64,000 nt of DNA from Staphylococcus phage vB_StaM_PB50. Under the pieces are notes generated by a model. That model saw only the letters and a program-made list of their open reading frames with translations. It ran no database searches and had not been told where the DNA came from. The DNA lies in the sequence record OR770614.1; one strand, written 5' to 3'. Below are positions 1,989 through 64,000 of this stretch, piece after piece. The translations under genes were made by a program, and so were the position numbers. Positions within the stretch are counted from its first letter, which is position 1. Each line of letters starts with the position of its first letter.

Positions 1989-4985
1989 ATGGAAGATAAA
2001 GATAAAAATCTCTTACAAATAAGTGAAGAGATGAATTCTATTAAGTCTAAGATAAATTCTTTAGTTCAAGATCAAGATAGTATTAAGAATTTATCAGAAG
2101 ATAATAAGAATAAGATTAATGTACTTAATGAAAATCTGGATAATATTGATAAAGAAAATGATAACTTAATAGAAAAATTAAGAAATTTAGATGGTAGTCA
2201 TGATATTGATTTAGATCTTTCTAATTATGTTACACTTGATACACTTAAAACAGAATTAAGAAAATATCAAAAATTAAGTATTGACTATATTGATAGATTA
2301 GCTGAAGGTGGTTGGGATTCTGATATTAAAGGTAATTTAGAAAACCTTAATGGCAGAGTCTCAGCTAATGAAGAATCAATTTCTTCAACTATGTCTAAAG
2401 TTAATAAATATGATTCAACTATTCAATACTTAAGCACTAAGGTTGAACAAACAGCTGAGTCTATTAAGAGTATTGCTACTGATTACACACTTAATGAAAT
2501 TAATCAAAGTATTACTAAATTAGAATCATTTAGAGAACAAACAGCTAGAGTTTTACAAGATACAGTTACTAGAGCTGATATAGATACTATGAATAATAAA
2601 GTAACTGAATTTGAAAGTCAAGTATCTCAGTTTGCAGATTTAATAGAACAGACTGTTTCTAAATCAGAAATTGACGGAATTACTATTGGTGGTAAAAACT
2701 TACTAGAAAATTCATTAGCTATTAAAGGTAATTGGTTATTATACCCTGAAAGTTTATCTTCAACTAAAGAGAATGCTTTAACATTTGGTCAAGATAATAA
2801 CGGTAAGAGTTATTTTACTATTAATACCGATGGAATAGAAGGAGAAGTTGGAACTATAAGCTATAATTCTTTCCCTTTAAAATATAATGAAACTTATACT
2901 ATTTCATTTGATTTTAGATCAGATACATTTAATAGACTTGATCATTGTTACTTCATTGATCCTTCAGGTAATTATACTACACCTATTGCTGAAAAATATT
3001 TAGATATTGATGAAGAATGGCATAGATACTCATTTGTATATAAACAAACTTTAACTGGAAGAAATAGTACAAAATTATTAATTGGTGTAGATACTGATTT
3101 AAATCAATTAAATGGTACATTTGATATATCTAGTGTTAAAGTTGAAAGAGGTAGTGTATCATCTGACTGGACTCCTGCTCCAGAAGACTTTGATAATATG
3201 TTAGAGAATTATAATAAAGATATCAATAATAAAATAGATAATATTGAAGAAAATGCTATTGGGTTAGGTGATACTGTTACTGAAGCTTTTAAAGATGGTA
3301 TTATATCTAATGCAGAAAAAATAGCTATTGAAAAGCAAAAGAATATTATTGATAAAGATAAAAAAGAAATAGATCAAATATTTAATTCATTATATGCAAA
3401 TAAAATGATGACAAATAGTGTTAAAACTGAATTGAAAAATAATTATGATTTATTCAATGAAAAATATAATATATTACTACAAGATATAACTAATACAATT
3501 TCAGATGGAATAGCTACTAAAGAAGAAGTAGCTCAATTTAATACAAATTTCTTAAGATATAATGAAGCTCAATCAAATATTAAATCATCTATTCAAAAGG
3601 CAGTAGATAATATTTCTAATGGCTATGCAGTTGATGAAGCTAGTAAAATCACTGTAGGTGGAATGAACTTAGTAAGTTATGAAAATATTTTAGCTATAGG
3701 ATCTGCAACTCTAAATAAGAATACTTATAAAGAGAACGGTGAAATGAATGTAGCTTTAACTGCTAATGGACAAGGTATTAAATTTAAATTAGATAAAGTG
3801 AGAAATAGACGTGAACATGTATTAGGTTTTAATTTAGAAAAGAAAACTGGTACACTTACAAATGTTGATATTAATATTCCTAATGCTTCTGTAACTTCTT
3901 GTTCTGTTAATGGTAATAAAATTGGAAGTGATTCTAGAAGTATTACATTTAACGATACATCATCATTGACATTTATTGAAGTTGTATTTATACCTAATGA
4001 CAGTTTCACAACTAATACTCCTACAGAAATCGTTATTAATCGTAATGGCACATTCCCATTATCTGTAGATGTAGAAGGGTTAAAAGTGGAAGAAGGTAAT
4101 AAAGCTACTGCTTGGCAACCTTCTATTAAAGACAGTAATGCTAGAATTACTAATATGGAAAGTAGAATTAGTCAGAATGAAAAGAATATAGATTTAAGTG
4201 TAACTAAAGAAACGTACAATGCAGATAAATCTAAAATGGAAAAAATGGGATCAGCTTTATCTATTTTAGCAGATGGTATTAGTATGTCATCTTCATCTAA
4301 TGATAAATTGTCTTCTTTTGATATTGATCCTAATAGCATTAAATTAAAATCTAAAATGGTTGATATTAATGATGGCGATGTAATAATTTCTAATGGTAAA
4401 GCTACTATTAAAGAAGCTTCTATTACTAATTTAATGTCTAAAAATATAGTTGTCCAAACTATGTTAGATGCAATGGGTGAAGTTAAAGGTGGTATTACTA
4501 TTAAACGTCCTGATGGAGGTTACTTAGTATATAATGGTATGCCAAGATTTACTACAGCTTATGTGCGTTCTGAACCAGGTGTGCAAGATTTAATGTCTAA
4601 TGGTACTCCTAGATTTAAGAATGTTGGTAATGCATTTATGTTTAGTGATAAGACTACCGGTAAATACTTCAGACGTGCTATGACAATGTATGGTCAACAT
4701 GAAACTAGATGGTTGCATATAGGTATTTGGTATGCTACTCCTCAATGTGGTATTGATATTAAAGTAGATTCATTTAATGACCAAAATGGAGTATTCTTTG
4801 ATAAAACTGTGTCTATACCTAAAGATACGTCAACTAGTGTAACTAAGACAAAACATAAAGAAATTATTGTAGATATGGGTATTCCAGCACAATCTATAGC
4901 TTCTATAGCAATTCGTGCAAGAGTTAAACCTGGTCAAAAAGGTAATGCTTGGATTCTTAACTCATATGTTTATGGTAGAAACTAA
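1989..4985 (+). CDS. tail fibre / receptor-binding protein
   Basis: 998 aa; N-terminal ~230 aa coiled-coil-like with short repeats; two internal ~200-aa lectin/CBM-like repeats each ending in the Firmicute phage tail-fibre motif (VERGSVSSDWTPAPED; VEEGNKATAWQPS); distinct C-terminal head domain. Confidence 0.7.
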   Translation: MEDKDKNLLQISEEMNSIKSKINSLVQDQDSIKNLSEDNKNKINVLNENLDNIDKENDNLIEKLRNLDGSHDIDLDLSNYVTLDTLKTELRKYQKLSIDYIDRLAEGGWDSDIKGNLENLNGRVSANEESISSTMSKVNKYDSTIQYLSTKVEQTAESIKSIATDYTLNEINQSITKLESFREQTARVLQDTVTRADIDTMNNKVTEFESQVSQFADLIEQTVSKSEIDGITIGGKNLLENSLAIKGNWLLYPESLSSTKENALTFGQDNNGKSYFTINTDGIEGEVGTISYNSFPLKYNETYTISFDFRSDTFNRLDHCYFIDPSGNYTTPIAEKYLDIDEEWHRYSFVYKQTLTGRNSTKLLIGVDTDLNQLNGTFDISSVKVERGSVSSDWTPAPEDFDNMLENYNKDINNKIDNIEENAIGLGDTVTEAFKDGIISNAEKIAIEKQKNIIDKDKKEIDQIFNSLYANKMMTNSVKTELKNNYDLFNEKYNILLQDITNTISDGIATKEEVAQFNTNFLRYNEAQSNIKSSIQKAVDNISNGYAVDEASKITVGGMNLVSYENILAIGSATLNKNTYKENGEMNVALTANGQGIKFKLDKVRNRREHVLGFNLEKKTGTLTNVDINIPNASVTSCSVNGNKIGSDSRSITFNDTSSLTFIEVVFIPNDSFTTNTPTEIVINRNGTFPLSVDVEGLKVEEGNKATAWQPSIKDSNARITNMESRISQNEKNIDLSVTKETYNADKSKMEKMGSALSILADGISMSSSSNDKLSSFDIDPNSIKLKSKMVDINDGDVIISNGKATIKEASITNLMSKNIVVQTMLDAMGEVKGGITIKRPDGGYLVYNGMPRFTTAYVRSEPGVQDLMSNGTPRFKNVGNAFMFSDKTTGKYFRRAMTMYGQHETRWLHIGIWYATPQCGIDIKVDSFNDQNGVFFDKTVSIPKDTSTSVTKTKHKEIIVDMGIPAQSIASIAIRARVKPGQKGNAWILNSYVYGRN

Positions 4986-26133: not shown

Positions 26134-27861
26134 CATTTATCTTAACCTACATTTAATATATAGGATGAGACTATATCTTATGGTTTCCCATTTATATATT
26201 TAGTCGTTGAACCTTATAATTAGGATGCTGATTAGTTTCAAACTGTCCCAGCAATTAATATGATTTATTGAAGGCAATAAATCAATAAATTTTATAATTC
26301 ATTAAAATATTTCCGCTATTCCAAATTCGATAAACACCCGATTGTTTTTTAGGAAAATCTGAGTATTCCATGTTTTCATTAATGTAATTTGGAAAGTATT
26401 CTGGTATAATAGATTTTTCAAATTCATGAACTGAATAAATATTTCTTTTAAAAATTATTTTACATGTAGATTTTAATTCTTTAACATAATTAAAACCAAA
26501 ATCTTTGAAATATTTACCATCAGAATAATCTTTATTTATTATTAAATCTATTGTTTTTATATTGTTTCTTTTGAAATATTTAATTGAATTACTTAATAAT
26601 TTAAATAAACCACCATTTACAATTGTTTTATTACTAAAAGCAAATTTTTCTAATTTAACTTTATTCTTATTTATATAATTATATGACATAATTGCAATTA
26701 TTTCATCATTAATTTTTAATGAAAAATTAATATCATGAGAGGAATTTATATAGGTACTATTATTTTTATAGAAGTTTTTAGCGTCATAATCGTTAATTAT
26801 TTCAAAATTACATTCTCTAGCATTTATTTTCTTTTCTTGAAAATAATCTATAGAATACAATATCCTATTAATTATTAAATCTTTTTTAAACTCGTAATCT
26901 AATGAGTTAATAAAATATATTTCAATATCAAAATTATTTTTAAAAAAATCTTTCTTATGTTTATGATATTCTTTATTTTTCATTTTATCTGAATGATAAT
27001 AGTATCCATTAAATTCAAATCCTATTTTTTTATCTGGAAAGAATAGATCTACTTCATATATTTGATCATTAAAAGAGAATCTTTTGTTATTTAAAATAAT
27101 TCCTTTATATGATTCTTTTATATATTTTATTAATTCAATTTCTTGATTAGATTTAATATTTTTACAAAGAGGACATCTATATCCTTGTTGAAAGTCATTA
27201 ACTCTTACACTATAAATATTACCACATTTTTTATGTTTTATTGGATATTTTTCTTTATTATTGAATTTATAATTTAAATCCAACCATTCATATTCATTAC
27301 CATCTTTAGATTCAGATAATATTTTTATTAAATAATTTTCATCATCTTTATAATAATATTTACCTCTTTTTTTATTTGAACAAAAAGGACATCTTCTTTT
27401 CTTATTTCCCAAAAATAAGCGTGGTTCTACTTTATATTCATTTCCGCATATTTCATGTCTTAATAAAACTTTATCGCTACCATTTTTATTAAAACCTTCT
27501 ATATAAGTATAATCTTTATTTTCTTTTTTAATTTCTTCAAAAAAGTCTTTATCCGATATATTTTTATAATTTCTAGCTTTTTTATTCCCTTCATTTTTAA
27601 AACATTTCGGACATCTTCCTTTTCCTTCATTTAAGAAAATATTACCTTTAGATACTCTATATTCTTCACCACAAATTTTATGTTTTAAAATAAAAGGCTT
27701 TGAAGTTCCCTCATAATTGCTTATTAATTCATAATTATTATTATCTATATTTTTTATTTTGTTTATTACATCTTCTTCTGTTAATTTAGGTGGCATAAAC
27801 TCATCCTTTCAATTAATTATTAAGGAGGTTTATTTAAATTTATTTTTTATTGATAATTTTT
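26134..27861 (-). mobile_element. group I intron in beta-prime gene (HEG-containing), about 1.73 kb
   Basis: last exon-1 nucleotide U, intron ends ..AAAUG; 3' 145 nt contain R (GGUUCAACGACUAAAU) and S (AAGAUAUAGUC) P7 elements homologous to the mini-introns in beta-C; contains 504-aa ORF with own RBS. Confidence 0.7.
26282..27796 (-). CDS. intron-encoded putative homing endonuclease (3 zinc ribbons + Vsr/EDxHD-like PD-(D/E)xK domain)
   Basis: three repeats of C-G-x-x-Y...C-P-x-C zinc ribbons; YEVDLFFPDKKIGFEFNGYYYHS matches the Vsr/DUF559-type nuclease core; GAAAGGATGAG RBS inside intron. Confidence 0.6.
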   Translation of the reverse strand: MPPKLTEEDVINKIKNIDNNNYELISNYEGTSKPFILKHKICGEEYRVSKGNIFLNEGKGRCPKCFKNEGNKKARNYKNISDKDFFEEIKKENKDYTYIEGFNKNGSDKVLLRHEICGNEYKVEPRLFLGNKKRRCPFCSNKKRGKYYYKDDENYLIKILSESKDGNEYEWLDLNYKFNNKEKYPIKHKKCGNIYSVRVNDFQQGYRCPLCKNIKSNQEIELIKYIKESYKGIILNNKRFSFNDQIYEVDLFFPDKKIGFEFNGYYYHSDKMKNKEYHKHKKDFFKNNFDIEIYFINSLDYEFKKDLIINRILYSIDYFQEKKINARECNFEIINDYDAKNFYKNNSTYINSSHDINFSLKINDEIIAIMSYNYINKNKVKLEKFAFSNKTIVNGGLFKLLSNSIKYFKRNNIKTIDLIINKDYSDGKYFKDFGFNYVKELKSTCKIIFKRNIYSVHEFEKSIIPEYFPNYINENMEYSDFPKKQSGVYRIWNSGNILMNYKIY

Positions 27862-44985: not shown

Positions 44986-45216
44986 TTATCCTGCATCATA
45001 CGTGTTATCACCATTGATTGAAGTAGTTGGCTCTACTTTTTCCCACTCTACATCTGATTTAAATTTAGGTCGAAAATCTCCATCGCCATCTGCAAAAATT
45101 GAAACACTGCCAGACGAACCTACTATTCCAAGACATTCCATTTCGTTCAACATTGACATAAAACAATCAATCCATCTTTCTTCCATTTCAACTTCAATTG
45201 TAAATTTCTTTTTCAT
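44986..45216 (-). CDS. hypothetical protein flanked by about 65-75-bp direct repeats
   Basis: 76 aa; TAAAGGAG RBS; flanked by near-identical copies of cassette + last codons of beta-C. Confidence 0.5.
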   Translation of the reverse strand: MKKKFTIEVEMEERWIDCFMSMLNEMECLGIVGSSGSVSIFADGDGDFRPKFKSDVEWEKVEPTTSINGDNTYDAG

Positions 45217-45236
45217 AATAATACTCCTTTATTAAA

Positions 45237-45305
45237 AATAAAAGTAATGATGAAATTAATCATCATTACTTTTATTATATTTATTTTGAATCTTCTTTAA
45301 TTTCT
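45237..45305. repeat. direct repeat copy B
   Basis: see copy A; includes the genuine 3' end (..KEDSK-stop) of beta-C. Confidence 0.65.
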
Positions 45306-45673
45306 TTAACTAGATTATTTATTTCTCTAGGTGATAAATCTTTAATATCATCTACATTTTCGAATTTTTCCATTAAGAACTCTAATTGATCTGGAGAAAG
45401 ATCCATAATTGAATGAAGATCTTCTTCTCCTGCTTTATTATAATCAATACTAACATTTAGTGGACTAAAGTAAGCATTAAGTACTTTAGTGTTATTATTT
45501 TGATATCTCTTTTCAAATGAAGTATTTAATTTAAACGGATTACCTGTATATAACTCTACTAATAGACGTTTTCTTAAGTCTTCATTATTAGAGTACATAT
45601 TAGTTAATTCATTAATAGCTTTGATAGATCCACCGATCATCATGTTAGTTGTTTCCATCTCACCGCAGTTATT
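45281..45673 (-). CDS. RNA polymerase beta C-terminal fragment, exon 4
   Basis: exon begins NNCGEMETTNMMIGGSIKAINEL (cf. RpoB ..GGQRFGEMEVWALEAYGAA..); ORF-track Met at 45658 is internal. Confidence 0.6.
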   Translation of the reverse strand, partial: NNCGEMETTNMMIGGSIKAINELTNMYSNNEDLRKRLLVELYTGNPFKLNTSFEKRYQNNNTKVLNAYFSPLNVSIDYNKAGEEDLHSIMDLSPDQLEFLMEKFENVDDIKDLSPREINNLVKEIKEDSK

Positions 45674-45833
45674 CTAAATATTATTATTTAGCTAGACTAT
45701 ATCATTACCATTTAAGGTAGAATATATTTAGTCGTTGAACACTAATTAAAGTGATGCCGATTAGTTTAATACTCTTCTCAGCAATTAATATTCTTTACAT
45801 TTATACATTTCTATATAACGGAGCCTTTATTTG
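45674..45833 (-). mobile_element. compact ORF-less group I intron (about 160 nt), beta-C intron 3
   Basis: 5' exon ends ..CUCAGAGU with IGS GCUC 12 nt inside intron (G.U at splice site); R GUUCAACGACUAAAU and S AAUGAUAUAGUCU; ends ..AUUUAG. Confidence 0.65.
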
Positions 45834-46491
45834 ACTCTGAGAGGATTGTTGTTTATTCTTGATCTATAGAACTTAGAATCGGGTGTTCGTGTGGGAATAC
45901 CACTGTAATTATTAAAGTCAATTGATTTTGCACTTAATTTCCCACTAGGCTCGTGTTTTAACTTCAGGTGATACAAATCTCCAACCATAAATGTTCTATT
46001 ACTAACATCTAGTCGGTTTTTCTTAATATTGTATTTATTGAATAAGTATCTGATTTGTTCAGATTCAATATTATCAAAGAAAGGTGCTTGATGAAGTACA
46101 ATACCATTTTTAATAAAGTCTTCAATAGCTTCTTTAGTCTCTTCATTATCTAAACTATCAAATAATTTTACATAATTATCATAAGATACTTTATCTGCAT
46201 CTTTGATATATTCTAATAAATATTCTTTCTGCTTATTAACATCATCTAACTTACTAATACGATGTCTAATAACGCTTGAAATATGATTTAATTCTAATTC
46301 AACTAATGCTGAAGGATTTCCTCTATTAATAATACCCATATTATTATGAATTAAGTCTACTCTTTTCTTAATAGGGGTTTTATTATCTTTTGTGAAATCT
46401 TCTCCATCAAATTCAGTAATCATTGGCATTTCATTATCTGGAACAATCTTAGCTACTACACCTTTTCCACCGTACCTTGTGCTTATTTTTG
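45834..46491 (-). CDS. RNA polymerase beta C-terminal fragment, exon 3
   Basis: (G)SKISTRYGGKGVVAKIVPDNEMPM...DLIHNNMGIINRGNPSALVE (cf. [41 protein letters not shown]) and FMVGDLYHLKLKHEPSGKLSAKS (cf. [20 protein letters not shown]). Confidence 0.75.
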
Positions 46492-46675
46492 CATTTGTGT
46501 TAATGAACTTCATATACTTTACTAAGAAGATCAGACTATATCATTACCTTCATATAAGGTAGAATATATTTAGTCGTTGAACACTATTTATAGTGATGCT
46601 GATTAATTTTATAATTCTCAGCAATTAATATTCTTTACATATAAATTTTCATTCATAAGGGACCTATTAATTTGA
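46492..46675 (-). mobile_element. compact ORF-less group I intron (about 184 nt), beta-C intron 2
   Basis: 5' exon ends ..CACGGAU, IGS GUCC in AAUAGGUCC; R/S elements; 3' end ..ACAAAUG; splicing joins PLVHG-SKISTRYGGKG. Confidence 0.65.
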
Positions 46676-47242
46676 TCCGTGCACTAAAGGTTTCTTCTCT
46701 AATACTTTAACTCTAAATACGATTTTATCAAATTGATTTCCATCATATACAAGTTTAGCATTAGGATCAATGTAGCTCTTAAATCTATTATAAGTTCTAA
46801 TTAAATCATTACTAAATTTCTTCTTGCGTACAATATCATCAGTAACAGTTACAAATGTACGATAGAAGTGTTCTAAATCTTTGATATATTTTAAGAATTG
46901 CTCTGAGTACTTTTCATTCTCTAATTTTTCAATTGATTCATTATTAAGTACATCAATATCAATAATTTTACCATGTACCTTGTATGCATTATCACTTTCA
47001 ACAATTTTAGATAACATATCATTTTTAAATTTATGAATTAATTCGTCATAGTTTAGTCGTCTTGTTGCTGTTAATACACCATCTTTAATTTCTTCTCCAA
47101 CATCTGGAAATGCTTTATAACTTTCTTCATCACCATAAATATTTAAAGGAATATCATTTGTATTTATAGTTACATTAACTACATGAACGAAATAACTTGA
47201 CATTTTCTCAGCTAATGATTCTGATACAACAATACCATCTTC
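46676..47242 (-). CDS. RNA polymerase beta C-terminal fragment, exon 2
   Basis: begins EDGIVVSESLAEK.. (cf. FEDSILVSERV..), ends IVFRVKVLEKKPLVHG(S) (cf. IVKVYLAVKRRIQPGDK); ORF-track Met at 47203 is internal. Confidence 0.7.
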
Positions 47243-47403
47243 CTATAGGTTATAATTAATAAAATTATACCATAGACTATATCATTACCGTTTAAGGTAG
47301 AATATATTTAGTCGTTGAACACTGTTTTTAGTGATGCTGATTAATTTAATAACATCTCAGCAATTAATATTCTTTACATACATAAATTTCTTTATGCAGG
47401 AAC
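47243..47403 (-). mobile_element. compact ORF-less group I intron (about 161 nt), beta-C intron 1
   Basis: R/S elements and P6/P8-like hairpins as in introns 2 and 3; ends ..CCUAUAG giving in-frame stop TAG just before exon 2; exact 5' splice site uncertain (+/- few nt). Confidence 0.55.
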
Positions 47404-47943
47404 AAAGTTAATTTTATTCGTAAATCCTTTATCTGGTAAAAATACTGAAGTAGCGTTTGTACCATATTGGAAATTATTTGATTCTTCATCATAGTTTTGA
47501 TCTTTATAAAGTACTTCATTTTTATCAACAGTACTACCAATTTCTAAAGAATCAATTTTTTCATTTTGATATTTATTACCGAACTTCTCAGCTAAATGAT
47601 TAGCTTCTTCTCTAATAATAATATCATACTCATCATTATCTTTATACTTCACTAAATAGTATTTTACATATTTATTCTTTTCAAATATAAAAATAACTTC
47701 AAAATCTCTTTCAGCTTTCTTATAACCAGTTGAATATTTACCCACTTGATTCTCAAAACCAGTTTGAATTAATGGAGGTTCAGCTTCAGTTAATTGAATA
47801 CATTGACCTATATGTGAAGTGAACATTTGTGATCTATTACCATTAGTTCTATTAACATTAGGCATTAATAGTAGTTCCGATAAAAATTCATGACTTTTCT
47901 TATCTTCAATCTCTTGCATTCTTTGTGTTCTTTCCTTTGTCAT
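47404..47943 (-). CDS. RNA polymerase beta C-terminal fragment, exon 1
   Basis: GGAGAGTG RBS; LLLMPNVNRTNGNRSQM..PLIQTGFEN (cf. LMGANMQRQAVPLL.PLVGTGME) and GTNATSVFLPDKGFTNKINF (cf. GQNMRVAFMPWNGYNFEDS). Confidence 0.75.
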
Positions 47944-48003
47944 CCTATAAACACTCTCCCTGTAATATAAAAGATAATGTGAAATAATATTCTCTTAATA
48001 TTC

Positions 48004-48092
48004 CACATTTTTATAATATATATTTAATAATAATTTTGTGCAATGGAATGGATCCAATGACACTTATTTTATGTCATTGGATATTCCATTTT
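48004..48092 (-). promoter_or_regulatory. terminator-like hairpin + promoter-like motif upstream of beta-C gene
   Basis: imperfect long IR AATGGAATGGATCCAATGACA/TGTCATTGGATATTCCATT then TTAAATATATATTATAAAAATGTGG about 60 nt upstream of beta-C start. Confidence 0.45.
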
Positions 48093-48100
48093 AAATATAA

Positions 48101-49420
48101 TTAACCTTTTTCTACTTCAACTTCATTTTTCTCTGAATCATAGTATTTTCCATCTGAACCTAACCAAATATCTTCTTCACTATTAATACATTCCACTAAC
48201 TCTAATTCTTCTTCATCTAAACTTGATTCATGTTCAATTGAAGCTAAGAATTTATCTTTATAGATATTTCTAATGTATTTATCAAAGTACTCTTGGAAAT
48301 CTTTGTTCCCTTCATATTTCTCTTGGAAAGTTTTAAGTGTAAAACTTACATCATCATAACCATCAATACGGTAAGCACGAGGATTACCTTTTAATAATTT
48401 TTGCTCTTGTAAATATAATAAGTTTGATAGAGTATTATTAAATCCATCTTTTTGTTCAAAGATCAAATTAAATTTAGCTCCAGCTGCATTTGAACGTGAT
48501 TTAATTACTTCAACTGTATTGATAAAACCTTTAATTCCGTATTTAGCTTGATTAGAACTTCCTTCTGGATCTAAAGCTTGTGATGGACTAATTTTAAACA
48601 TGTTATTTGCCATATAGTTGATTGCTTTACCACCTGGTAGTGCTTCACCTTGTTTAAGATAATTTAATTCTTTAGGTGTAGCTGCATAAGGATTAATATC
48701 AATTTTAGTTGTAATATGGTTAATTAAAATAAGCATAATATTAGCCGAGTTTAATGTAGATGAACCAATAATACGTTTAATGAATGTTGTATTATCTTTA
48801 GCTTGTTTAGTGGCATTCATTTGTCCACCTTCACCATCTTTATCATCAATTTCTTTAGAAGCCATTGTAGCAACAGAGTCAATAATAACTACTGTTGGAG
48901 CCATGAATGAAACTTTTTCTCCAGTTTCTGGATCAATCTTATCTGTATGAATAGTAAATTCTTCTTCACTTTCTAATTTAGTATCACGAATACCACGAAT
49001 TAATTGATCCACTGAATCTAAACTAATCTTTTTATTTAATTTAGTGTATTTATCTTGTTTCGTTTGTTTAGACCAACCAGTTAATTGATAAATACGTTCA
49101 TCGGTAGTTGCATCCTCAAAGTCATAATGAATGATACTAGCATTTTCAAATGGTTCAACAATTTTAGCTGCAGCTTGAATTGCTAATGTTGTTTTACCTG
49201 AACCTGATCCACCAATAAATGTTGTAACTTTACCACCCATTAAACCAATACGTTCATCATCAGTTACAGTATTTAAAAAACCATTTCTATAATCTAATAA
49301 GTTGATTCCTGACTCATACATAGGTGTGTAATTATCTTCCTTACCATATACATTAGGGTTTGATTTGATTAAATCATGAATTTTACTTGTTAATTTTGCC
49401 ATTGAAATTTCACTCTCCAA
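48101..49420 (-). CDS. RecA-family recombinase (UvsX/RecA-like)
   Basis: 439 aa; Walker A GGSGSGKTTLAIQ, Walker B VVIIDSVATM, LILINHITTKIDINPYAATPKE..GGKAINYMAN (cf. RecA [31 protein letters not shown]). Confidence 0.7.
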   Translation of the reverse strand: MESEISMAKLTSKIHDLIKSNPNVYGKEDNYTPMYESGINLLDYRNGFLNTVTDDERIGLMGGKVTTFIGGSGSGKTTLAIQAAAKIVEPFENASIIHYDFEDATTDERIYQLTGWSKQTKQDKYTKLNKKISLDSVDQLIRGIRDTKLESEEEFTIHTDKIDPETGEKVSFMAPTVVIIDSVATMASKEIDDKDGEGGQMNATKQAKDNTTFIKRIIGSSTLNSANIMLILINHITTKIDINPYAATPKELNYLKQGEALPGGKAINYMANNMFKISPSQALDPEGSSNQAKYGIKGFINTVEVIKSRSNAAGAKFNLIFEQKDGFNNTLSNLLYLQEQKLLKGNPRAYRIDGYDDVSFTLKTFQEKYEGNKDFQEYFDKYIRNIYKDKFLASIEHESSLDEEELELVECINSEEDIWLGSDGKYYDSEKNEVEVEKG

Positions 49421-51819: not shown

Positions 51820-51990
51820 TTATTGTAAAATGTATATCATTTCTATTAAGTTTATTCTCGGTAAATATAATATTGATATGATCAATATAATTAATGAAAA
51901 TATACCACCTGCCATAACTAGTGCATTATCATTAATTTCTAAACCTAAAATAACCAAGCAAAGACCGATTATAGATAATATAGTTAACAT
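51820..51990 (-). CDS. small membrane protein (about 56 aa), not in ORF track
   Basis: GAAAGGTGGAC RBS + ATG; MLTILSIIGLCLVILGLEINDNALVMAGGIFSLIILIISILYLPRINLIEMIYILQ (retranslated); coordinates approximate. Confidence 0.35.
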   Translation of the reverse strand: MLTILSIIGLCLVILGLEINDNALVMAGGIFSLIILIISILYLPRINLIEMIYILQ

Positions 51991-52058
51991 TTTATGTCCA
52001 CCTTTCTTTTAATTTATAAAGAGTAATGAACTTAATGTACATCACTCTATTAATAAAA

Positions 52059-62659: not shown

Positions 62660-64000
62660 GCTTGCAACCTTGTCCGAACCTGAAAGTTGCGGTTATCCTA
62701 TATATTTCTATATAAGCCAGACTATATCTTAATCCCAGAGGGATCATTCCTGTTTCGATTTAAAGGGTTCTCACCTACTTTTATTTATAAAAGCCCTACT
62801 CCTATTGCGAAATTTCATCGCTTAAAGGATAGTCGTTGAACCAATTTATTAGTATTTTGTCTATTTTTTGCATTTCATAAAAGTTTATACGAAGTAAAGG
62901 TATTTCTCTTTCTTTACAAAAATTATTTTTTAATTCATCTCTTTTATTTATATCTTTATCTCTAAACATACTTTTTCTATGATTATTATTGTGTTGTCTT
63001 CCATCGAACTCTATTAAAGTATTATTTCCTGATACATAGAAATCAAATCTCAAGCTTTTTTTGTATTTTAAATCAGGAAATGTTTTTTCTTTAATATAAT
63101 CTATATTATTTTTTTCTAGAAATTTGATTATGTTTTTTTCTCCTCTAGAATATGTGTTCCCTAAACGTCTGTCTTTACGACACATAGGACAACCAGGCAT
63201 TTCATATATCCATCTAGGTTGTTTATAAAAAGTATGATTACATTTCACACATTTGAATTTATTTTTAGATGTATTTGTTTTATATTCATCCAGACATATT
63301 ATATCTCCATTAAACAAATTAGACAGCCTTTCTTCAAATTCTTCATGTGTTATAATTTTAAATTTAGGGGGATTACATACAGGACAACTATCACTTTTTC
63401 TTTTTCTTAGTTGTGATATGCTATTTTCAAATTCATGTCCGCATCTTTTATCTCTCATCACTATTTTAGAATTTATATTTTTGTAATCTCCACTCACATA
63501 CTCTTTATGATAAATATTTAATTTCTCGTTTATAGTATTAAAATTAGATTTTTTTAAACTTCTCTTTTTAATACCGCAATGTGGACATACTTTCCCTACT
63601 TTTATTTTTTCAAATGTTCTTTGGAATTCTTTATTACATTTTAAACATACAAAATCCATTTTAGTTTTTGTATTTACATATTCTTTAGATAATAAGATAC
63701 ATTTATTTTTTACTTCTTCTTTTACATCTTCAATACTAAAAAATTTTCTAGACATTATTAATCTCTCCCAATTTTATATTATAAAAAATAGTTAACTGGG
63801 TTAGATAAAATTGCTAATAAAATTGGTGCTGATTTCCCATTATTTCAATACTTAGGACTCTTAAAAAGAGCTTTTATTTCACCATATATCATCTCACTAC
63901 TTGTTTCTACTTTCGTTCCATTTAGGCAAGTGAGCTTTAGGGAGTTCCAGCTTTAAAGGAATTTATTCGACACTATATTGCTATAGTAGAAGGGGCCAAG
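62660..64000 (-). mobile_element. group I intron with HEG in beta-prime-C gene (5' end and upstream exon beyond window)
   Basis: R UGGUUCAACGACUAUCC and S UUAAGAUAUAGUCUGGC between HEG stop and exon; GC-rich structured 5' part at 63760-64000; ORF 62565..62747 is an intronic artefact. Confidence 0.55.
62802..63755 (-). CDS. intron-encoded putative homing endonuclease (3 zinc ribbons + Vsr/DUF559-like domain)
   Basis: three C-x2-C...C-P-x-C ribbons; LRFDFYVSGNNTLIEFDGRQHNNNHRK matches Vsr/DUF559 core (..VEVDGxxxH); GGGAGAGATTAATA RBS; paralog of 26282..27796. Confidence 0.6.
   Translation of the reverse strand: MSRKFFSIEDVKEEVKNKCILLSKEYVNTKTKMDFVCLKCNKEFQRTFEKIKVGKVCPHCGIKKRSLKKSNFNTINEKLNIYHKEYVSGDYKNINSKIVMRDKRCGHEFENSISQLRKRKSDSCPVCNPPKFKIITHEEFEERLSNLFNGDIICLDEYKTNTSKNKFKCVKCNHTFYKQPRWIYEMPGCPMCRKDRRLGNTYSRGEKNIIKFLEKNNIDYIKEKTFPDLKYKKSLRFDFYVSGNNTLIEFDGRQHNNNHRKSMFRDKDINKRDELKNNFCKEREIPLLRINFYEMQKIDKILINWFNDYPLSDEISQ

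Follow-up and report, generated by a model that had tools for sequence, protein, structure and literature searches.

Compact introns of a group I family in an RNA polymerase beta-subunit gene of Staphylococcus phage vB_StaM_PB50

In a stretch of 64,000 nucleotides from Staphylococcus phage vB_StaM_PB50 (OR770614.1; hereafter the window), four ATG-started open reading frames (ORFs) follow one another on the minus strand between positions 47943 and 45281, separated by three gaps that closely resemble each other. The question raised by this locus is whether it encodes four polypeptides or whether the gaps are introns within a single gene, as a first-pass annotation made from the sequence had proposed when it read the locus as an RpoB-like C-terminal gene with four exons and three compact, ORF-less group I introns. 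Our analysis upholds that reading on the grounds of intron-less alleles in phages DC4 and PALS_2, an empty site in phage Machias, a match to chain C of Protein Data Bank (PDB) entry 7S00 and covariation within the elements. It is very probable that three ORF-less group I introns interrupt one gene for the C-terminal half of the beta subunit of the non-virion RNA polymerase (nvRNAP); transcription as a single RNA is predicted, and splicing is what we infer from structural homology.

Four exons of one polymerase gene

Megablast with positions 45200-48000 gave matches confined to Staphylococcus jumbo phages, with identities of 96% to AH12, 93% to Machias, about 81% to MarsHill and Madawaska and 80-83% to DC4, PALS_2, S6 and LY01. 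Machias is collinear with the entire window, at 96-99% identity in most blocks, in an alignment that crosses the ends of the Machias genome. The phage of the window is a jumbo phage of the AH12/Machias type. Phages of this type are relatives of Bacillus phage AR9, and each encodes two multisubunit RNA polymerases (RNAPs), with the subunits divided between an N-terminal and a C-terminal gene (Korn et al., bioRxiv 10.1101/2020.12.14.422802). Judged by sequence, the minus-strand segment 47943..45281 is almost certainly a single gene of this kind, namely that for the C-terminal half of the nvRNAP beta subunit. The predicted spliced product of 712 amino acids matches PDB 7S00 chain C, from the AR9 nvRNAP, in a single stretch (residues 15-660, E=5e-137) that spans all junctions; it also matches bacterial beta subunits and contains the Pfam domain RNA_pol_Rpb2_6. 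The first-pass annotation had suggested looking for intron-less alleles in related phages, and these do exist: tblastn found the gene uninterrupted in DC4, PALS_2, S6, SA1, AR9 and PBS1 as well as in LPJP1 and phiR1-37, and Machias supplies an intron-less allele for intron 1. AH12, Machias, MarsHill, Madawaska and LY01 have the gene in separate pieces. In DC4 and PALS_2 the uninterrupted gene has 2142 nt and encodes 713 amino acids.

Comparison with these alleles sets the limits of exons and introns, which lie on the minus strand, as do the other introns, the promoter-like motif and the terminator-like hairpin of the window described below. Exon 1 (47416..47943; amino acids 1-176, ending in GFTN) is delimited by the DC4 and PALS_2 alignment and by the edge of a Machias megablast block at 47416. 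Intron 1 (47243..47415, 173 nt) is precisely absent from Machias and scores 150 bits with covariance model R1 and 135.6 bits with model R2 (both described below). The three remaining exons are each delimited by alignment to DC4, PALS_2 and 7S00 chain C. Exon 2 (46675..47242) begins with EDGIVVSESLAEK and ends with KPLVHGS, exon 3 (45834..46491) begins with KISTRYGGKGVV and ends with NNNPLRV, and exon 4 (45281..45665) runs from GEMETTNMM to the stop codon. Between them lie intron 2 (46492..46674, 183 nt; R1 125.9 and R2 112.6 bits) and intron 3 (45666..45833, 168 nt; R1 143.3 and R2 128.2 bits), both with gap-free junctions against DC4 and PALS_2. Each intron ends in G, as had been stated, and nucleotide alignment to the intron-less alleles fixes these terminal residues at 47243, 46492 and 45666.

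When exons 47943-47416, 47242-46675, 46491-45834 and 45665-45281 are joined, they form a continuous ORF of 2139 nt, and the 712-residue product aligns to its DC4 counterpart with no gap at the junctions between GFTN and EDGIVV, between HGS and KIS and between PLRV and GEME; the nucleotide alignments to DC4 and PALS_2 are likewise gap-free at all three junctions. The empty site for intron 1 is equally exact, in that the Machias megablast blocks stop at window position 47242 and restart at 47416 while the corresponding Machias coordinates (258360 and 258359) are adjacent. The blocks around the missing 173 nt have 90-99% identity, and the flanks about 98%. Four of the six splice sites originally predicted agree with these boundaries, but the end of exon 1 lies at 47416 rather than 47404 (12 nt away) and the start of exon 4 at 45665 rather than 45673 (8 nt away). 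The claim that removal of the introns leaves a continuous reading frame thus stands with the corrected junctions and fails with the original ones: these give an exon total of 2158 nt, a length not divisible by 3, and the frame breaks.

All three insertion points lie inside conserved motifs: after GFTN and before EDG, between the HGS and KISTRYGGKG of a second motif, and between the PLRV and GEME of a third. An in-frame stop follows each 5' splice site within 2-8 codons, and the downstream ORFs, if read alone, would lose conserved residues such as EDGIVVSESLAEK. An intein is ruled out by these in-frame stops after the 5' junctions and by the length of intron 1, as 173 nt is not a multiple of 3. 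Introns 1-3 have stops in every frame and contain no ORF, and thus lack the homing endonuclease gene (HEG) that marks the homing type of mobile group I intron. Splicing is predicted to join TTTACGAAT to GAAGATGGT, GCACGGAT to CAAAAATAAG and CTCAGAGT to CGGTGAGATGG, and would yield the junction-spanning peptides GFTNEDGIVVSESLAEK, PLVHGSK/ISTR and INNNPLRVGEMETTNMMIGGSIK.

A reduced group I fold and its covariation

The three gaps contain related elements, as had been noted: GTTCAACGACTAAAT and ATGATATAGTCT are present exactly in each of them. The former occurs exactly four times in the 64-kb window, in the three gaps and at 26198-26212, against 0.18 occurrences expected from shuffled sequences, and none of 100 shuffles reached four. 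An identity of about 85% had been claimed both among the three elements and with the core of an intron in the beta-prime gene, where the fourth copy lies. Among the three introns this is correct over the core of about 126 nt that extends from P2 to P7 (85-87%; 77-79% over the full length), whereas their identity to the beta-prime intron core is 68% overall and about 80% over the best 75 nt. The GC content of the introns is 23-26%.

Each intron can pair its own guide strand with the end of the preceding exon to form P1, with the U.G wobble at the 5' splice site. The guides GUCC of intron 2 and GCUC of intron 3 had been recognized before, and intron 1 has GUUC. In intron 1, the internal guide strand UUUGUUC (47400..47406) pairs with GAAU^AAA, where the caret marks the splice site, such that GUUC is opposite the exon bases GAAU; in intron 2, GGUCC (46664-46660) pairs with GGAU^C; and in intron 3, GGCUC (45825-45821) pairs with GAGU^C. 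The first intron bases extend P1 by 1-3 pairs. A P10 is possible in intron 1 between the CUUU beside the guide and the GAAG of the 3' exon.

Downstream of P1, the catalytic core of intron 1 from P2 to the 3' strand of P7 occupies 47274..47399, as supported by covariance models, pair counts and the minimum free energy (MFE) fold, and those of introns 2 and 3 occupy 46660-46533 and 45820-45694. In intron 1, P3 is formed by 47373-47367 with 47305-47299, and P7 (GACUA/UAGUC) by 47313-47309 with 47279-47275; the same core also holds P4, P5, P6 and P8. In order, the elements are P2, a 7-bp helix capped by a GAAA tetraloop in the window introns; P3 (AGAAUAU/AUAUUCU); J3/4 (UAAU); P4 (UGCUGA/UCAGCA); a 3-bp P5; P6 (CACU/AGUG); J6/7 (UUCAAC); P7 with a bulged C and a flanking A-U pair; P8 (ACC/GGU); J8/7 (AAUGAUA); the P9 hairpin; and the terminal G. 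P3 and P7 cross, which is the group I pseudoknot. The geometry of P7 (A-U, bulged C, G-C) mirrors C262-G312, A263 and G264-C311 of the Tetrahymena intron. MFE folds of 21 single copies independently give P2, P4-P5, P6, P7, P8 and P9. Moreover, AAUUGCUGAGA, AAUCAGCAUC, GUUCAACGACUAAAU and AUGAUAUAGUCU, the P, Q, R and S elements, align to the matching positions of the Rfam consensus, and P7 together with J3/4, J6/7 and J8/7 aligns to the Rfam group I consensus. P2 ends in a GNRA tetraloop in each of the window introns, as it does in 18 of the 19 Machias copies with this helix, a conservation that suggests a tetraloop-helix contact replacing the missing peripheral domains.

The covariance check for group I structure that had been proposed at the outset gave a positive answer with our own models and pair counts and a sub-threshold one with Rfam. 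Model R1 was built from the three window cores and a hand-drawn structure, and R2 is a broader model; the beta C-terminal genes of the window, MarsHill, AH12, Machias, LY01 and Madawaska together hold 19 complete introns of 153-185 nt at eight sites. Alignments were guided by the covariance models, as MAFFT misregistered the stems of 18 introns. R1 found 22 copies in the beta C-terminal loci of the six phages and none in the DC4 or PALS_2 loci. In these 22 copies, once P7 was included as a pseudoknot, 96.2% of the cells are paired, as compared to 31-44% when partners are slid by 1-3 columns, and 22 of 35 pairs show compensatory changes; none of 500 shuffles equaled the observed values. Since this alignment was fitted to the model, the test was repeated on 26 Machias copies from other genes that had played no part in model building, with a closely similar outcome (93.6% of cells paired versus 30-47% slid, 23/35 pairs with compensatory changes and again 0/500 shuffles equal to the observed values). 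De novo prediction with RNAalifold returned P2/P1, P4, P5, P6, P7 and P8, with P7 picked over P3. P7 itself does not vary, which leaves sequence conservation as its sole support. P1 covaries with the exon at the insertion site of intron 3, where the window has GAGU with GCUC and the orthologous MarsHill intron has GAAU with GUUC, and further combinations of exon and guide occur elsewhere (GGAU with GUCC, GGU with GCC, GGGAU with GUCUC).

Several points weigh against this interpretation. P1 involves only 4 exon base pairs, P10 is weak in introns 2 and 3 (1 bp), and the very short helices (P5 of 3 bp, P8 of 3-5 bp) might make unaided folding marginal. The pair counts come from model-fitted alignments, which biases them toward structure, and splicing of introns 1-3 is a step that we infer. 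In addition, Rfam gave no match at the gathering threshold, nor when the limit was relaxed to E<=10 for 3.2 kb of sequence or to E<=1 for the full 64 kb, and intron 1 alone, in a 191-nt search, reached 18.3 bits against Intron_gpI (RF00028), for which the cut-off is 50 (E=0.009). Intron_gpI nevertheless has the lowest E-value among all Rfam families for this query, on the correct strand, and its alignment shows P3, P4, P7 and the junctions as in the proposed structure while most of P5, P6, P8 and P9 is deleted. The shortfall is thus due to the miniaturization of these helices and not to absence of the fold, and the sub-threshold score does not outweigh the covariation. The same effect explains a report on DC4, in which Rfam found no introns in the genome of that phage.

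The family in the window, sister phages and uncultivated phage contigs

A filter-free scan of the window with R2 returned introns 1-3, a further core at 26283-26168 (79.1 bits) and a sole weak match at 62796-62719. The fourth core belongs to a HEG-bearing group I intron of 1728 nt (26134..27861) that interrupts the nvRNAP beta-prime gene within its catalytic DxDGD motif, where it follows GADYDG; a 504-amino-acid, Zn-finger, HEG-like ORF (27796-26282; Pfam DUF4379) lies between its P1 and P2 and is followed by the 116-nt core 26283-26168. At the same site Machias has two ORF-less mini-introns instead, and AR9 a conventional HEG intron at the same codon. The Machias mini-introns, of 182 and 180 nt (record positions 2799-3166), flank a 6-nt micro-exon, GCCGAT, inside the ADYDGD motif. 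The Machias nvRNAP beta-prime coding sequence (CDS) in GenBank stops at 2822, so that the annotated protein is without the catalytic DYDGD motif, because the two introns and the micro-exon were not recognized. The weak match belongs to an apparent second HEG-bearing group I intron at ~62690-63900, in the N-terminal gene of the virion RNAP beta subunit, whose 3' half was examined; its ORF (62802-63755, 317 amino acids) contains the R-like GGTTCAACGACTAT inside its 3' end, and the S element lies at 62730-62719. In Machias an ORF-less mini-intron (243894-244022) occupies the same site.

The whole Machias genome contains 30 strong copies (E<=8e-8), all 30 in the sense orientation relative to the host gene. 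The hosts are six RNAP subunit genes, two DNA polymerase genes and genes for terminase, prohead protease, NrdE, GyrB and a virion protein, and some copies adjoin three TnpB-like genes. Blastn with intron 1 matched AH12 (27 places), Machias (28), LY01 (31), Madawaska (11) and MarsHill (9), and no other record; DC4, PALS_2, S6 and SA1 were blank. Within the beta C-terminal gene, the site of intron 1 (site A) is occupied in the window and AH12 only, that of intron 2 (site B) in the window, AH12 and MarsHill, and that of intron 3 (site C) in all these phages, including Machias, MarsHill and Madawaska, except LY01 and those free of the family. AH12 and Machias have further introns in this gene that are absent from the window, even though the AH12 exons are 96% identical, and one of them, between amino acids 542 and 547, has a HEG ORF inserted after P4' (the P6 region). 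As presence and absence differ between near-identical phages, the family must be mobile now or have been so recently.

Outside this clade, the exact pattern of R and S elements at compact spacing occurs in at least 120 IMG/VR stretches, and R2 gave 95 matches in the first 80 IMG/VR loci, mostly on uncultivated contigs of 200-400 kb. In one of these loci (L047, 3199-4229), an RNAP beta-prime gene with the motif NADFDGD holds five copies in a span of 1.1 kb, separated by exons of about 60-90 nt. The exact pattern also matches contigs of giant-virus metagenome-assembled genomes.

Some relatives are smaller still, at 147-162 nt, with junctions that are provisional except for ORF continuity in one case. 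An automatic finder of P1 and 5' splice sites, run on the 30 Machias copies, was noisy because P2 competes, and was combined with reading of the sequences; junctions outside the nvRNAP beta C-terminal gene are accordingly provisional. Three Machias copies (51916-52035 on the minus strand, 115335-115461 and 243438-243559), hosted by the genes for prohead protease, virion RNAP beta-prime (DFDG motif) and virion RNAP beta, are apparently without P2, with P1 directly before P3, and without P8. Their provisional sizes are 147-154 nt, with 154 nt for the prohead protease intron; the other two introns are placed at 115342-115491 and 243445-243591, and the former would have C, not U, before the 5' splice site. 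For LY01 3058-3241, the best protein-level junction, which is uncertain, places G rather than U there (after CATGAG), which recalls group B IStrons, whose splicing likewise takes place after a G, and the beta C-terminal gene of LY01 appears to include a 9-nt micro-exon (CCATCAGGT).

Predicted splicing, possible routes of spread and relation to known systems

In the mechanism that we favor, one pre-mRNA would span 47943..45281 as a single promoter-proximal transcript, each intron would fold into a reduced yet complete group I core (P1-P9 with the P3/P7 pseudoknot), and standard two-step, guanosine-initiated transesterification would excise the introns and join the four exons to encode the 712-residue subunit. 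It is extremely unlikely that the locus instead encodes four truly separate polypeptides and that the elements of about 170 nt are intergenic repeats, such as regulatory or terminator-like RNA. Although RNAP subunits of jumbo phages are naturally split (Korn et al., bioRxiv 10.1101/2020.12.14.422802), the window does offer four ATG-started ORFs and the AH12 GenBank record has separate CDSs, one ORF starts within an intron (at 46513) and another 39 nt past the beginning of exon 2 (at 47203), at the cost of residues conserved in DC4 and AR9. The intron-less alleles are moreover collinear to the nucleotide, and the split points vary among phages of 96-98% identity and are absent from DC4, PALS_2, S6, SA1 and AR9. 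Separate genes would also leave unexplained a covarying group I fold in elements that are always sense to the host gene, and no terminator-like site lies within the gene, the only one in 45100-48200 being at 45276-45237, after the stop codon. A less radical departure is that these are group I introns but not autonomous ones, their reduced periphery making splicing dependent on a maturase or chaperone of phage or host origin, or on the conditions of the infected cell. We regard this as unlikely but with an appreciable chance of being correct: helices are reduced to very few base pairs, the periphery is mostly gone, Rfam gives a low score, some Machias relatives are apparently without even P2 or P8, and the many HEG-like proteins that the genome encodes could double as maturases. 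Yet the GNRA loop of P2, in the window introns and in nearly all Machias copies that have this helix, suggests that RNA elements make a tertiary contact, every core junction sequence is conserved, and no candidate cofactor was identified. RNA-RNA contacts of the GNRA kind stabilize small autonomous introns such as that of Azoarcus.

The spread of the family invites a similar comparison. We think it improbable that the mini-introns are ORF-less derivatives of IStrons, spread as DNA by insertion sequence (IS) machinery or TnpB-guided homing with a ribozyme that only neutralizes the insertions. At three Machias positions (79307-79439 on the minus strand, 205541-205677 and 227913-228044) the copies share an extension after P9 that is followed by a TnpB-like 'transposase' of about 400 amino acids, annotated as CasX-like, and there is precedent for IStrons with and without ORFs, among others in Clostridium botulinum phages (PMC4227781). 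Among the phage records, however, TnpB homologues are found in Machias and LY01 only and are absent from AH12, MarsHill and Madawaska, where intron 1 matched 27, 9 and 11 places, and tblastn found no TnpB in the window. Nor do the insertion sites form a fixed IS target: they end in GAAU, GGAU, GAGU, GGGU or NGGU with matching guides, whereas IStron targets are TTGAT-like or GG-ending (PMC4227781), and no subterminal IS palindromes were identified. The idea of TnpB-less IStrons is weakened. Mobilization in trans by the homing endonucleases of full-length relatives or by free-standing HEGs, which the first-pass annotation had also raised, is possible but unsupported, and we give it a rather small chance. 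HEG-bearing relatives do exist in the window (26134-27861 and ~62690-63900) and in the beta C-terminal gene of AH12 and Machias, intron presence varies between close relatives, and collaborative homing is documented in other phages (PMC3984707). Yet homing endonucleases recognize long, specific sites, so that about 30 sites per genome would need many specificities; the HEG-bearing copies occupy other sites; and ordinary recombination between co-infecting phages would spread an existing insertion without any HEG. Unrelated insertion sites have in common just the 3-5 nt that pair with the guide, the pattern expected of spread by reverse splicing, which we offer as a hypothesis only, as that route is still without direct evidence (Hausner et al., PMC3984707). 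The clade as a whole has a conserved retron-type reverse transcriptase gene (219310-220863 in Machias); a correlation between reverse transcriptase and the intron family was rejected, given that the gene is present in 9/9 Staphylococcus jumbo phages, including four with no BLAST match to the family, although the enzyme may still be involved.

The intron-split state of this gene has already been published for the clade, and the introns are not a new kind of element; we judge them to be a compact, multi-copy variant of a known element type. On the basis of alignments with AR9 proteins, the gene had been annotated in sister phages, with 4 exons in MarsHill, 3 in Madawaska and 6 in Machias (Korn et al., bioRxiv 10.1101/2020.12.14.422802). 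MarsHill has sites B and C in common with the window, Machias and Madawaska have site C, and site A adds an insertion seen in the window and AH12 only. The preprint inferred introns from protein alignment alone: the terms 'group I', 'self-splicing' and 'ribozyme' never occur in its text, the family nature, fold and size of the introns are not described, and at least two Machias beta-prime introns were missed. AR9 is a related jumbo phage with uracil-DNA, and its RNAP subunit genes, too, contain group I introns. These introns are said to be self-splicing, as Lavysh and colleagues reportedly described in Virology in 2016. The AR9 beta-prime intron is inserted in the same codon as the HEG-bearing relative in the window (between DYDG and D) and has P, R and S elements in common with it, but it is about 900 nt long, includes a HEG and has its R and S elements about 130 nt apart; no intron interrupts the beta C-terminal gene of AR9. 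Membership of AR9 introns in the compact family was rejected for the one that we examined, this beta-prime intron, in which R2 finds nothing.

The usual example of the smallest self-splicing intron is that of the Azoarcus tRNA-Ile gene, at 205 nt. Bacterial tRNA group I introns span 184-894 bp in a 2026 survey (PMC13011429), so that the original remark that these introns are at or below the smallest known sizes was about right: with 168-183 nt, they are at or just under the known lower edge. Like the small bacterial tRNA introns, they have a minimal P1-P9 architecture without an ORF and with GNRA contacts in place of large peripheral domains, but they are shorter (with relatives of 147-162 nt), AT-rich, located in protein genes of phages and present in many copies per genome. 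A comparable case of one gene holding several ORF-less, mutually related group I introns is known from the Staphylococcus phage Twort, where Landthaler and Shub are said to have described, in 1999, three related group I introns, all self-splicing, within orf142. Those introns reportedly start at about 250 nt in size and are of a typical IA2-like class, in an unrelated phage with far fewer copies per genome. IStrons (CdISt1, BcISt1; PMC4227781) resemble the family as multi-copy group I elements in ORFs with ORF-less derivatives, and the family has TnpB-linked members in Machias and LY01; the window introns, however, are without an IS component and a fixed target, and the family is abundant in phages without TnpB. 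We tentatively propose, with considerable doubt, that the family is the smallest natural class of self-splicing group I ribozymes, occurring at about 30 sites per genome in some Staphylococcus jumbo phages and in dense arrays in RNAP genes of uncultivated jumbo phages, with sites set by about 4 nt of guide complementarity. Self-splicing, if true, would move the lower size limit of natural group I ribozymes further down and provide dozens of natural minimal-core variants for structural and folding work. For annotation, the consequences are that Rfam-based pipelines miss the family and that the AH12 annotation breaks up one polymerase subunit into several 'hypothetical proteins'. Some phages with about 30 sites, sisters with no BLAST match and sites that differ in genomes of 96-98% identity make this a tractable system for the spread of ORF-less introns. 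We expect its interest to be moderate to fairly high for specialists in ribozymes and mobile elements and low for those seeking a new type of system.

Two features flank the gene. Upstream of exon 1, the motif TATATTAT at 48013..48020 (read 48020-48013) matches the AR9 and MarsHill early-promoter consensus quoted by Korn et al. (bioRxiv 10.1101/2020.12.14.422802) and may be an early promoter. Just past the stop codon, a perfect 40-nt hairpin with a T-run (45237..45276), whose tail reads TTTTATTTTT, is the likely terminator of the transcription unit, and the next ORF after it is a small one of 76 amino acids at 44986-45216.

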